From assembly GCA_903862845.1 (NCBI GenBank), contig CAIOZS010000103.1, forward strand, positions 6,187 through 70,186: 64,000 nucleotides of DNA, in the 5' to 3' direction. The position numbers and the translations under genes were made by a program. Origin of the DNA: an uncultured Thermoleophilia bacterium. Its GTDB lineage: Bacteria > Actinomycetota > Thermoleophilia > UBA2241. Positions 37,878-41,187 of this stretch are shown here, piece after piece. Within the stretch, counting starts at the first letter, position 1; each line of letters starts with the position of its first letter. The notes beneath the pieces are model-generated. The model worked only from the letters and a program-made list of their open reading frames with translations. It made no database searches and was not told the origin of the DNA.

Positions 37878-39893
37878 GTGGTGAAGCACATCAGTCTGAC
37901 GCGAGAGGCGGCTCTCGCTGGTCTGCTCGAGTGTGGCCGTCTGCTTGAGGGCGCCACCAAGGAGTCATCCAAGCTTGCCGAGCCGCTGAGCGATGTCTTC
38001 CAGAGCGTTCTCCAGGCCCTCGCCGGCATCATGGGCGCCGACCGTGCCTCGCTCATGGTGCTAGACGACGATCGCGATTCCCTCGCCATCATCGCTTCCG
38101 TTGGGGTTCCGGAAGACGTGGCCGAGCAGACGCGGGTCGCGCTGGGCGAGGCGATCAGTGGTTGGGTGGCCGAGCACGGCAAGTCGCTGCTCTTGGCTCC
38201 GGGACAGGAGATCCCCGGCCCGGTGCGCGAGGCCATGCATCAACCTTCCGTCACCTCCTCCCTCTCTGTGCCGATCTCCTGGGACGGTGGGGTGCTGGGA
38301 GTCCTGAATCTGGGTCGCCTCGGCGGCGCCGCGCCCTTCGATCACGCTCAGCTTCAGTTCGCCGCTCTGGCGGGAGAGCAGCTCGGGCGCTTCCGCTCCC
38401 TGTCGCGTTTGCAGCACGAGACCAGCGAGCACGGGCTCTTCGTCAGCCAGTTCATCGAGAGCATCCCGAGCTCGATGCTGGTCGTCGACCGCAGGCTGCG
38501 AGTCGTCTCCGTCAACCGGCATTTCCTCGAGAGCGTGCGGCGCGGAAAAGAGGCCACAATCGGCCGCAGGCTGGTGGACGTCCTGCCCTCGTGGCTGGCC
38601 AAGTACGCGCCTATGGAAGAGAAGCTGAAGCAGGTCTTCAGGAGCGGGGATGCGATCGACGGTGGCGACGTCCTGCAGGTGGGCACCGGCAACGTGTATT
38701 TCTTCCGTTTTGTCCCAATTACGGTGGGAGGCTCCGTGCAGCAGGCGATGCTGCTCGTGGACGATGTCACCGAGCGGCACAAGCTCGGCGTCGAGGTCAG
38801 ACGGGCCGAGCGTCACTTGACCGGCGTGGTGCAGAGCGCCAGCGATCTCCTCGCCTCCCTTGACGATGGGGGCCGCATCGTCACCTGGAACCCGGCCGCG
38901 GAGCGGGTCTCCGGATGGACGCTTGCCGAGGCGCTGGGAAGGCGCCTGTGGGAGCTTTGTGCGCCCGACGACGCAGAGCTCATGGAGAAGATGCTGAAGG
39001 GGTCGCCGGCCGAACAGCAAGCGCACACCCAGGAAGCCAGGCTCGTGGCGCCCGACGGGCGAGAGTCGATCGTGGACTGGAGCAGCTCGCCCATGACCGA
39101 CGACAACGGCGTGATCACGGGGACCGTGGTCGTGGGGCGCGACCTCACCTCCTACCGGCTGCTCGCGAGTCAGCTCATCCAGGCCGAGAAGATGGCCTCA
39201 TTGGGGGTGATGGCGGGGGGTATCGCGCACGAGCTGCGCACCCCGCTGGCCGTTATCCAAGTGAGCGCCCAGCTCCTGATGGAGAACCCGGACGACGCGG
39301 ACCTTCAGGCGACGTGCCTCTCCAAGATCGATGCCTCCACCAAACGGTCCGCGCTCATCATCGACAACCTGCTCAAGTTCGCCCGGCCCCAGGCCGAGCT
39401 GCTGGCCGAGGTCGATGTGGACGCCGTGCTCGACCAGACCCTGGCGCTGCTGGCCGATCAGCTGACGCTTCAGAGGGTACGAGTGCAGCGGACGCCCATG
39501 CCTCACGGCGTGCGCGTCGTCGGCAATGCCGATCTGCTACAACAGGTGTTCACCAACCTCGTGCTCAACGCCTGCAACGCCATGCCCGAGGGCGGCGAGC
39601 TGAGCATCGTTACGAGCGCGGAGCCCGACGGCCCGGTCAGGATCGCGTTCAAGGACACGGGCGTTGGCATTCCGGCCGCGGACCTGCCGCACCTCTTTGA
39701 CCCCTTCTTCACCACGAAGCCCCCCGGCAGCCCGTCCTCGGGGCTGGGCCTCTCAATAAGCTACAGGATCATAGAGCAGCACGCCGGCGGCATCGAGGTA
39801 GCCAGCGACCTGGGGAAGGGCTCGGCGTTCACGGTGTCGCTGCCAGGGCTTGGAGGGGGTGCACATGAGCCAGAGGGTGTTGGTCGTCGATGA
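37878..39893 (+). CDS. Sensor histidine kinase with GAF and PAS domains
   Basis: GAF-like N-terminus, two PAS-like segments, H-box AHELRTPLAV, N/G boxes (NLVLNACNAM, KDTGVGIP). Confidence 0.8.
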   Translation: MVKHISLTREAALAGLLECGRLLEGATKESSKLAEPLSDVFQSVLQALAGIMGADRASLMVLDDDRDSLAIIASVGVPEDVAEQTRVALGEAISGWVAEHGKSLLLAPGQEIPGPVREAMHQPSVTSSLSVPISWDGGVLGVLNLGRLGGAAPFDHAQLQFAALAGEQLGRFRSLSRLQHETSEHGLFVSQFIESIPSSMLVVDRRLRVVSVNRHFLESVRRGKEATIGRRLVDVLPSWLAKYAPMEEKLKQVFRSGDAIDGGDVLQVGTGNVYFFRFVPITVGGSVQQAMLLVDDVTERHKLGVEVRRAERHLTGVVQSASDLLASLDDGGRIVTWNPAAERVSGWTLAEALGRRLWELCAPDDAELMEKMLKGSPAEQQAHTQEARLVAPDGRESIVDWSSSPMTDDNGVITGTVVVGRDLTSYRLLASQLIQAEKMASLGVMAGGIAHELRTPLAVIQVSAQLLMENPDDADLQATCLSKIDASTKRSALIIDNLLKFARPQAELLAEVDVDAVLDQTLALLADQLTLQRVRVQRTPMPHGVRVVGNADLLQQVFTNLVLNACNAMPEGGELSIVTSAEPDGPVRIAFKDTGVGIPAADLPHLFDPFFTTKPPGSPSSGLGLSISYRIIEQHAGGIEVASDLGKGSAFTVSLPGLGGGAHEPEGVGRR

Positions 39894-40254
39894 CGAACCA
39901 GACGTCTGCTGGGCTCTCAAGTCGGCGCTCAGCGGCGGCTACGAGGTGGTGACCACCTGCTCCGGCACGGAGGCCGCCTCCTTGCTGGCGACGGGCGACT
40001 ACCGGTTGGCGTTCGTCGATGCTAAGCTTGGGGATATGGACGGGCTGCAGCTTGCTCGCGAGGTGTCCGATCTCGACCTGAACACTGCCGTCGTCCTCGT
40101 CTCCGGGTACGTGGCCGGCGACGACGACGTGGTGCGACAAGCCCTCGAGAGCGGGCTGCTCAAAGCCTTCATCCCGAAGCCGTTCTCTCTCGAGCAGATC
40201 CGAAGTCTCGCCGCCGAGGTGCTCCCGCCCCGGCGGCCGCGCAGAGGGGAGTAG
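39865..40254 (+). CDS. Single-domain response regulator receiver (CheY-like)
   Basis: VLVVDDEPDVCWAL...D...K pattern. Overlaps the 3' end of the kinase gene. Confidence 0.65.
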   Translation: MSQRVLVVDDEPDVCWALKSALSGGYEVVTTCSGTEAASLLATGDYRLAFVDAKLGDMDGLQLAREVSDLDLNTAVVLVSGYVAGDDDVVRQALESGLLKAFIPKPFSLEQIRSLAAEVLPPRRPRRGE

Positions 40255-40256
40255 GG

Positions 40257-40979
40257 GTGGCGCGCGTCCTCGTTGTCGACGATGAGCCCGACCTCGTCTG
40301 GGCCGTCAAGTACGCGCTTCTCGACGAGGGGCACGAGGTTCTCACCGCCAGCGGCGGTGTTGAAGCCTTGGCTCTTGCCCGCCAGGAGCGGCCCGACCTC
40401 TTTGTGATGGACGTCGTCATGCCCGGGCTCGATGGCATCGAGGTGTGCCGGGAGGCACGCCGCGACCTGAGGCTCGCATCCGTCCCCATCCTGTTCCTGA
40501 GCGGCCACGGCGAGGTGCAGGACCGCGTGAGGGGTCTCGACGAAGGCGGCGACGACTACCTGTGCAAGCCCTTCGATCTCACCGAGCTCAAGGCCAGAGT
40601 GAGGTCTCTCCTTCGGCGGACGGCTGCGCCGCGCGACGAGACCTCAGGTGACGCGCACGTGATGCGCGTCGGCGCACTCTGCCTGGATACGCGTGAGCGG
40701 AGCCTTCAGGTGGACGGCACGCCGGTGGCCATCACTCCGGCCGAGTTCACGCTTGTCGGCTTTCTCATGGCACATGCCGGCGAGGTGTTCTCGAGCCGGC
40801 AGCTCCTCCAGCGGGTGTGGGGTTACCCGCCGGGAACCGGCGACGCGGCCGTGGTGCGCTGGCACATGAAGAATCTGCGCGCGAAGATCGAGGCGAATCC
40901 TTCGGAGCCCCTGTACGTCCGCACGGTGCCGCGCTATGGCTACATCCTGGACCGGCGGGCGACCTCTTCGTCCTTCTGA
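40257..40979 (+). CDS. OmpR/PhoB-family response regulator
   Basis: GTG start. Receiver (VLVVDDEPDL.., DLFVMDVVMPGLDG) plus a winged-helix output (..ITPAEFTLVGFLMAHAGEVFSSRQLL..RTVPRYGY). Confidence 0.85.
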   Translation: MARVLVVDDEPDLVWAVKYALLDEGHEVLTASGGVEALALARQERPDLFVMDVVMPGLDGIEVCREARRDLRLASVPILFLSGHGEVQDRVRGLDEGGDDYLCKPFDLTELKARVRSLLRRTAAPRDETSGDAHVMRVGALCLDTRERSLQVDGTPVAITPAEFTLVGFLMAHAGEVFSSRQLLQRVWGYPPGTGDAAVVRWHMKNLRAKIEANPSEPLYVRTVPRYGYILDRRATSSSF

Positions 40980-41187
40980 CCAGGTGCCGCTTGTAGGTGG
41001 TTTGGCGCGTACACACGCTGAGCCCTCGGTACCTGCCCCAATCCTTACGCAACGCACACGCTATTCCGTGCTTTCTCAACGAAATGCAAACTATCAATCA
41101 GCCACGCCTCGGGTAGACTTCAGACGTGGTCCGGATTACTCGGATCTACCCGCCGCAGTTTCGTGGTAACGCAAAGTTCTAGAGGAG

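Follow-up and report, generated by a model that had tools for sequence, protein, structure and literature searches.

Signalling genes in front of gvpA

The 64-kb stretch of DNA analysed here (hereafter the window) comes from an uncultured Thermoleophilia bacterium and carries a gas-vesicle gene cluster that opens with gvpA, the gene for the major shell protein. Directly upstream of gvpA and on the same strand lie the genes for a sensor histidine kinase, a stand-alone CheY-like receiver and a response regulator of the OmpR/PhoB family (Table 1). The receiver gene, whose start at 39865 follows the gene calls in public assemblies with identical sequence, overlaps the kinase gene by 29 nt up to the stop codon of the latter and ends 2 nt before the GTG start codon of the regulator gene; by their layout, the three genes look like one operon. 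In the spacer between this cassette and gvpA we found an array of 11-bp repeats, through which the cassette probably controls gvpA. A first-pass annotation, made from the sequence alone, had described a co-directional GAF-PAS kinase, CheY-like receiver and OmpR-type regulator upstream of gvpA, and both Pfam matches and gene coordinates agree with that description. It had also placed the end of the cassette 200 nt before gvpA; the adjacency holds, but the distance had to be revised. The longest gvpA open reading frame (ORF) starts at 41188, whereas the GvpA model (residues 1–70 of 71) and all homologues (M/V-AVEKA...) align from the GTG codon at 41197, so that the spacer is 217 nt long.

Relatives of the regulator number in the thousands. 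The genomic context was read for 14 further distinct homologues, 51–91% identical to the window regulator, and in 11 of these the kinase and regulator genes, with or without the receiver gene, stand directly before gvpA and are followed by the same order of gvp genes. Regulator identity in the linked loci descends from 91% (L004), 83% (L001), 82% (L003), 72% (L005), 70% (L171) and 65% (L172) through 63% (L007, in a metagenome-assembled genome (MAG) labelled Thermoleophilia, GCA_027493445.1), 62% (L008 and L009) and 61% (L173, in a MAG labelled Ardenticatenaceae, GCA_027493995.1) to 51% (L011, Candidatus Chloroploca asiatica B7-9). According to the labels assigned to the MAGs, they span two phyla, Actinomycetota and Chloroflexota. 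The genes preceding the kinase vary. The window and the assembly of L003 have guaA at this place, L001 has GGDEF-EAL and mreB, L007 a transposase gene together with a SnoaL gene, L008 a GGDEF-EAL gene and L173 hisG/hisS. Since the upstream genes differ, the conserved unit is the junction between cassette and gvpA and not a wider housekeeping synteny. A metagenome scan with the regulator returned only paralogues of 31–54% identity and no new linked loci, the peptide patterns used being generic for the family; a genome scan with equally generic patterns still yielded L009 and L011. Gas vesicles have been observed in Ca. Chloroploca asiatica (PMC6180586), and gvpA and gvpN are restricted to mesophilic, vesicle-bearing Chloroflexales (PMC7332563), albeit neither paper mentions regulators. 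The Ca. Chloroploca asiatica locus contains two tandem copies of gvpA.

The regulator consists of a receiver domain (PF00072, 2.5e-27, residues 4–116) and a winged-helix Trans_reg_C domain (PF00486, 4.1e-21, residues 154–231). Its receiver signature is complete (DDEPD, FVMDVVMP with Asp53, LSGH and CKPF), and the closest solved structures are RpaA (5e-46), Mycobacterium tuberculosis PhoP (1e-43), PrrA and MtrA, all matched over the full length, and RegX3. Among the NCBIfam equivalogs RpaB was the best-scoring named family with 199.4 bits against a cut-off of 330; the scores for MtrA (183 against 300), PhoB (175 against 296) and OmpR (129.8 against 331) were lower. As the protein falls far below every such cut-off, including those of CseB and YycF, it belongs to no named orthologous group. 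Together with the two domains, a tandem direct-repeat target, in this case predicted computationally, places it in the OmpR/PhoB family. The predicted recognition helix, VVRWHMKNLRAKIE, follows a pattern, (V/L)VRWH(M/V/I)KNLRxKIE, that is kept in all gvp-linked loci and also in L006, L012 and L013; this putative helix is conserved wherever the repeats described below occur, matching the predicted operator.

In the kinase, Pfam recognises a GAF domain (residues 35–170), two PAS stretches (approximately 195–425), HisKA (445–506; PF00512, 6.4e-14) and HATPase_c (550–656; PF02518, 3.1e-24, nearly full length). The H-box, HELRTPL, can be read in the translation, and the combination of an H-box HisKA domain with HATPase_c is that of a HisKA-type sensor kinase. 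No obvious hydrophobic N-terminal segment was seen by eye in the translation (no transmembrane predictor was run), and the kinase is apparently soluble. All NCBIfam matches are far below the equivalog cut-offs, the top one being AtoS (263 against 646 bits). Matches of the sensor part to solved GAF and PAS structures were weak (E > 1e-6) and mixed, including an adenylate-cyclase GAF domain, PAS domains of a diguanylate cyclase and of phytochrome B, and FixL. These matches gave no clue to a cofactor, and inspection by eye showed a GAF domain devoid of Cys and revealed no NCRFLQ motif of the LOV type. Orthologues of the kinase (49–79% identity) adjoin the regulator in the related loci and are 630–670 aa long in most of the linked ones; the exception is the kinase of L173 (3202–7461), which has 1419 aa and many extra PAS domains. 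In L001 (5654–7360) and L008 (6372–7694), unlike in the window, GGDEF-EAL genes lie directly beside the kinase gene, which hints at a possible link between buoyancy and cyclic di-GMP signalling.

Orthologues of the stand-alone receiver (51–93% identity) are present in most related loci, and since the protein is missing from L008 and L011 it appears to be an accessory part. The first-pass annotation had spoken of a dedicated phosphorelay. A multi-step His-Asp-His-Asp relay is not what the three proteins represent: a separate receiver is present and the kinase, having no receiver domain, is not a hybrid, while no Hpt domain was detected in kinase, receiver or regulator (Pfam, E ≤ 0.01), although a divergent Hpt protein may be encoded elsewhere in the genome. 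Because the cassette contains no Hpt domain, it is better regarded as a branched two-component system with an extra stand-alone receiver than as a true phosphorelay.

Predicted operator, promoter and the gas-vesicle cluster

The spacer had been noted as markedly less GC-rich than its surroundings, and this proved correct. Its GC content is 0.553, that of the window 0.683; among all 217-nt segments of the 64 kb no more than 0.23% reach so low a value, and the lowest value of the window (0.53) falls inside the spacer. The spacers of the distant linked loci share no alignable sequence with that of the window apart from one element. Gibbs sampling of a 22-mer was performed on seven distant spacers only (L172, L007, L009, L008, L173, L011 and L171), with the window left out. 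The sampling converged on two tandem 11-bp direct-repeat units with the consensus (c)CCTAACGCA(n), exemplified by AGACTAACGCA followed by ACCCTAACGCA in L173 and by ACCCTAACGCA followed by TACCTAACACA in Ca. Chloroploca asiatica. When the seven-site matrix was run over the whole window on both strands (∼128,000 positions), the top match was the pair ATCCTTACGCA and ACGCACACGCT in the regulator-gvpA spacer, with 15.76 bits, and the next best scored 8.78 bits. As a control for base composition, 37 of 20000 dinucleotide-preserving shuffles of the spacer attained the score of the operator (chance ∼0.002). Matrix scores were not compared across loci as a test, since AT-rich genomes inflate them; the statistics are those of the within-window scan and the spacer shuffles.

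The close relatives carry the same operator (12.3–17.0 bits) in nearly invariant form, and no block of their spacer alignment is better conserved. Phased 11-bp CCTAACGCA units precede gvpA in all linked loci. Counted in 11-nt registers, L172, L009 and L007 each have five to seven units with an ACG or ACA core; in L173 units 1, 2 and 4 are present, and in the window the same three, with ACG cores at 41047, 41058 and 41079. The third of these belongs to the weaker half-site, the CAACG of which is kept in four of five close relatives. Further upstream, the ACG core (41015) of the half-site-like unit GTACACACGCT precedes that of the first strong unit by 32 nt, or three helical turns. The first-pass annotation had called for a search for direct repeats in the spacer, and this search was rewarded by the tandem 11-bp units and their window-unique match. 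A plain repeat search of the spacer reported nothing beyond an 8-nt sequence, CACACGCT, which occurs at 41012 and 41055 as parts of two operator units, so that a repeat finder alone would miss the array. Tandem direct repeats spaced by about one helical turn are typical of the operators of OmpR-family regulators, and we infer that the array is bound by the phosphorylated regulator. Autoregulation was considered as well but found no support, as no site above 4 bits is present in the guaA-kinase gap (37745–37877) and none of at least 11 bits before the kinase gene in the relatives.

The position of the array relative to the promoter could be read most clearly in the distant loci. In five of them (L172, L009, L007, L173 and L011) exactly 19 nt separate the end of the proximal unit from a −10-like hexamer (TATACT in three loci, GATAAT and TATGCT in one each), and the A of the unit's ACG core lies 24 nt before that hexamer. 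With this 24-nt spacing, the proximal unit would cover the −35 position of a promoter lacking a −35 box, an arrangement that is classical for activators of the PhoB type. In the window, the preferred −10 candidate TAGACT follows, with the same 19-nt gap, a degenerate unit, ATGCAAACTAT; the distances from TAGACT to the better units upstream are 35, 56 and 67 nt, near helical phase with the 24 nt. A scan of 37500–41700 with the sigma-70 consensus returned no promoter-like site with a good −35 box, which fits an activator-dependent promoter. No sigma-54 box (TGGCAC-N5-TTGC-like, up to two mismatches) was found in 40980–41196.

Transcription would start near 41126. An Rfam scan of 37000–44000 gave nothing relevant, and thus no recognised riboswitch or leader. 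Hairpins similar to the small stem-loop at the predicted 5′ end of the gvpA mRNA, with other stem sequences, are predicted in the relatives; since the whole 5′ untranslated region (UTR) of the window folds no better than its shuffles (z +0.84), we claim no RNA element there. A further repeat core, TAACGCAA within GGTAACGCAAAG, is located in the predicted 5′ UTR (41165–41177), 20 nt before the ribosome-binding site, and is kept in close relatives; this core may represent an operator downstream of the start or just part of a conserved leader. The strong Shine-Dalgarno sequence that had been recognised at the end of the spacer is indeed there: it is AGAGGAGG, the GGAGGAGGTGAC of which is kept in relatives.

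The genes following gvpA form a gas-vesicle cluster of ∼14 kb, which is probably co-regulated with it. They encode, in this order, a GvpC-like repeat protein, an unassigned ORF, GvpN, small ORFs, Hsp20/GvpH-like and M48-like proteins, GvpF, GvpG, GvpO, two zinc-finger proteins, a CDC48-type AAA ATPase, a fusion of GvpL with a J domain, a GvpJ-like protein and GvpK. The identity of the cluster is established by matches to GvpA, AAA_5 (GvpN-type), GvpL_GvpF (twice), GvpO, GvpK and a second Gas_vesicle-domain protein. GvpG, an 85-aa ORF at 48455–48712, was assigned by position and not by a scan of the window, on the basis of an 85-aa gene with PF05120 annotation that occupies this place in L001, L003, L004, L007, L008 and L173. 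The segment 46040–53154 is unusually rich in chaperone-like genes (Table 1), and the same set is found in related loci. The product of the gene at 41547–43220 (557 aa) recalls GvpC by its position and its 33-aa repeats, albeit no GvpC family was matched; the repeats are 99-nt tandem repeats (3.8 copies, 87% matches), a 252-nt period is also present, and the protein contains a low-complexity stretch rich in Pro, Glu and Lys, while its C-terminus is helix-hairpin-helix-like. Between this gene and gvpA, 30 nt after the gvpA stop codon, lies a stable hairpin (41441–41485; GCGCGGTGACTGGCGT...ACGCCAGTCGCCGCGC, then CTCTTTG). The 91-nt stretch containing it folds with −48.9 kcal/mol (z = −4.95), and none of 200 shuffles folds as well; it is probably a partial terminator or a stabiliser, by which gvpA message would come to exceed that of the accessory genes. 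In L171, four copies of a similar palindromic unit (CTGGCGACAACGCCAGTC) fill the regulator-gvpA spacer, which at 838 nt is unusually long. On the other side of the cassette, the GuaA protein of the window is 84–90% identical to proteins labelled Thermoleophilia bacterium.

Table 1. Features of the gvpA locus (positions in the window).
Feature	Position	Strand	Basis or remark
IMP-dehydrogenase-like gene	34979-36136	+	
guaA	36188-37744	+	Directly 5′ of the kinase gene
Sensor histidine kinase, 671 aa	37878-39893	+	Pfam
Stand-alone CheY-like receiver, 129 aa	39865-40254	+	Pfam PF00072, 6.6e-18
OmpR/PhoB-family response regulator, 240 aa	40257-40979	+	Pfam receiver and winged-helix domains
Regulator-gvpA spacer, 217 nt, GC 0.553	40980-41196	+	Contains predicted operator, promoter and 5′ UTR
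Upstream half-site-like unit GTACACACGCT	41009-41019	+	Block conserved in close relatives
Strongest predicted operator, units ATCCTTACGCA and ACGCACACGCT	41041-41062	+	Distant-locus matrix
Weaker half-site TTCTCAACGAA, core CAACG	41073-41083	+	21 nt after second strong unit
Degenerate promoter-proximal unit ATGCAAACTAT	41084-41094	+	ACT core at 41090
Preferred −10 candidate TAGACT	41114-41119	+	Only TAnnnT in spacer; predicted start near 41126
Small stem-loop GGTCCGG...CCGGATC	41128-41146	+	Predicted 5′ end of gvpA mRNA
Ribosome-binding site AGAGGAGG	41181-41188	+	8 nt before GTG start
gvpA, major gas-vesicle shell protein, 71 aa	41197-41412	+	NCBIfam NF006874, 6.9e-38, above cut-off; Pfam PF00741
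Remaining gas-vesicle cluster	41547-54926	+	Pfam; same order in related loci
Hsp20/GvpH-like protein	46040-46633		
M48-peptidase-like protein	46649-47683		
Two DnaJ-type CXXCXGXG zinc-finger proteins	49106-49501, 49541-49900		
Two-ring CDC48-type AAA ATPase	49958-52096		
GvpL/F protein fused to J domain	52111-53154		

Proposed control of gvpA

Taken together, the linkage in 11 further loci down to 51% regulator identity and under two phylum labels, and the window-unique operator, favour the view of the first-pass annotation that a dedicated cassette controls gas-vesicle formation, with the phosphorelay replaced by a two-component system. We consider it likely that this control is direct, through the repeats, and that activation is its main mode. 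From what is known of the protein families, the GAF-PAS-PAS kinase would sense an intracellular cue, autophosphorylate on the His of HELRTPL and hand the phosphoryl group on to the OmpR-type regulator, at Asp53. The stand-alone receiver would probably be phosphorylated by the same kinase and act as a competing sink, buffer or modulator. In HisKA kinases an E-x-x-T motif accompanies phosphatase activity, and the H-E-x-x-T of the window kinase suggests that it would also dephosphorylate the regulator. The phosphorylated regulator is expected to bind head-to-tail to the 11-bp array, with the strong pair as its principal site and the units at 41009, 41073 and 41084 as weaker ones. The array would thereby reach the −35 position of a promoter with TAGACT as its −10 element and no recognisable −35 box, and the most likely outcome would be the recruitment of RNA polymerase and PhoB-style activation of gvpA and the gas-vesicle operon.

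Several observations weigh against this interpretation. Three of the 14 homologues (L006, 66% identity; L010, 54%; L012, 55%) are found away from gvpA. A 46% paralogue in a Caldilineaceae MAG (L013, JAXLWB010000055.1), on DNA with no gvpA, has similar repeats before another gene, namely CTTACGCAAAA followed by CAAACGCTTTT and a TATACTGG box at 10660–10780, just after the regulator gene. Since the repeats occur there without gvpA, the motif is perhaps a property of a wider regulator subfamily with other targets, and the window regulator, too, may have further targets. Within the spacer, the subgroup to which the window belongs has a degenerate promoter-proximal unit, and the choice of the −10 element is uncertain: an alternative, TATCAA (41092–41097), is kept as TATCAT in two close relatives and would place a half-site between −35 and −10. 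As to the individual loci, the ORF that follows the repeats in L013 (11171–11782) appears to encode a secreted protein. In L006, the C-terminal half of the regulator (1113–1835) is near-identical to those of L172 and L009, a short 78-aa ORF stands in place of the receiver and the 8.9-kb contig carries no gvpA; this locus is possibly rearranged.

With TATCAA as the −10 element, the CAACG unit at 41073–41083 would sit inside the promoter, which is what one would expect if the same cassette and operator served mainly to repress gvpA, or to act both ways depending on the level of phosphorylation, through sites overlapping the promoter and the UTR. The well-conserved TAACGCAA of the UTR could be a second site of this kind, and OmpR itself acts both ways at ompF. 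However, the UTR element is kept only in the close subgroup, where the entire UTR is conserved, and the five distant loci display the usual activator layout, with the proximal unit at the −35 position and no −35 box. We therefore regard mainly repressive or dual control as unlikely.

The homologues away from gvpA and the repeats of L013, along with the fact that the closest named families (RpaB, RpaA, MtrA and PhoP) are global regulators, would also be compatible with a two-component system that is a mere neighbour of gvpA, having other or global targets, while the repeats of the spacer are bound by a different protein. Against this stand the persistence of the linkage in 11 other distinct loci despite the changing upstream genes and the 11-bp period of the tandem direct units, which is the signature of the very family to which the regulator belongs. 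Moreover, no other position in the window exceeds 8.8 bits, compared to 15.8 for the spacer site, and in the gvp-linked loci a single site of at least 11 bits (14.7 bits, in L011) lies outside the gvpA spacers. A coincidental neighbourhood is thus quite improbable. The low GC content might alternatively mark a strong constitutive promoter and leader, in which the repeats would be promoter or UP-like elements that receive no signal. In clusters of this type gvpA gives the most abundant product, nowhere in the window is the GC content lower than in the spacer, and the very stable hairpin after gvpA is of the sort expected for a highly expressed, stabilised message. Yet a −35 box is absent, and the conserved element is a phased direct repeat rather than an A/T tract, its sequence being kept across loci in which the remainder of the spacer has wholly diverged; we give constitutive expression very little credence.

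A broader idea may be put forward tentatively, although we lean somewhat against it: cassette, operator and the ∼14-kb gvp cluster might constitute a self-contained, regulated buoyancy module that has moved between Actinomycetota (Thermoleophilia) and Chloroflexota, with its sensor ends tuned to different cues. Such a module would bring its own sensor, and the recipient would at once gain signal-controlled flotation. The variable sensors (630–670 as against 1419 aa, with or without the extra receiver) would then fit the module to different cues.

Relation to known systems

To our knowledge, almost nothing is known about the switching of gas-vesicle genes beyond the haloarchaea (GvpD/E) and Serratia-type Proteobacteria (GvrA/B/C). 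In the literature, not all journals of which were covered, we found no account of an OmpR-type gas-vesicle regulator, nor of gas-vesicle control in Chloroflexota, Actinomycetota or Thermoleophilia. The locus offers a defined sensor, a regulator, an operator of CCTAACGCA units with an 11-bp period and a predicted promoter for buoyancy control in two little-studied phyla, and the circuit is conserved from an uncultured Thermoleophilia bacterium to Ca. Chloroploca asiatica, a phototroph grown in enrichment culture. The cue that sets buoyancy in planktonic or mat bacteria thereby becomes approachable, as do forecasts of flotation from metatranscriptomes and, for engineered gas-vesicle reporters, the construction of a compact native on/off switch.

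In Serratia sp. ATCC 39006 and other Proteobacteria, GvrA, GvrB and GvrC are encoded in the gas-vesicle cluster, are needed for transcription of the gvpA1 operon and are thought to relay an environmental cue, low oxygen; GvrA is an NtrC-family activator that works with sigma-54 at a −24/−12 promoter before gvpA1 (PMC4982088, PMC11778176). The two systems are alike in that the regulatory genes are physically within the gas-vesicle locus. They differ in the host phyla and in the arrangement of the genes, the gvr genes forming a second operon mixed with gvp genes, whereas the window cassette stands directly before gvpA. The regulators differ as well: that of the window has only the receiver and Trans_reg_C domains and no Sigma54_activat AAA+ module, and its gvpA is preceded by neither a sigma-54 box nor a −24/−12 promoter. 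In haloarchaea, the cluster-encoded activator GvpE binds an element next to the gvpA core promoter (PMC9501494). Control that is encoded in the cluster and exerted upstream of gvpA is common to GvpE/GvpD and the window, but the haloarchaeal pair, a bZIP-like activator and a P-loop repressor, bears no relation to the proteins of the cassette, works with an archaeal transcription machinery and involves no phosphotransfer.

Closer parallels in architecture are found outside gas-vesicle biology. E. coli PhoB and the PhoP proteins of Streptomyces and Mycobacterium belong to the same OmpR family, and the pho box, in which direct-repeat units with an 11-bp period replace the −35 box, is laid out like the array before gvpA. 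In the window, however, the unit itself (CCTAACGCA) differs, the regulator scores 175 bits against the PhoB cut-off of 296, an apparently soluble GAF-PAS kinase takes the place of the membrane-bound PhoR, and an organelle gene cluster is targeted instead of phosphate genes. Cyanobacterial RpaB and RpaA provide the best-scoring named family (RpaB, 199 bits) and the best-matching solved structure (RpaA, 5e-46), respectively. RpaB binds direct repeats of TTTACA-like units (HLR1), which resemble the CTTACG/CTAACG core in the window. Nevertheless, the score is far from the RpaB cut-off of 330 bits, the host is not a cyanobacterium, and RpaA and RpaB are global regulators unlinked to gvp genes. The mechanism itself is of ordinary two-component design and will surprise the specialist only moderately; the cassette before gvpA is a new, apparently undescribed member of a familiar two-component kind.

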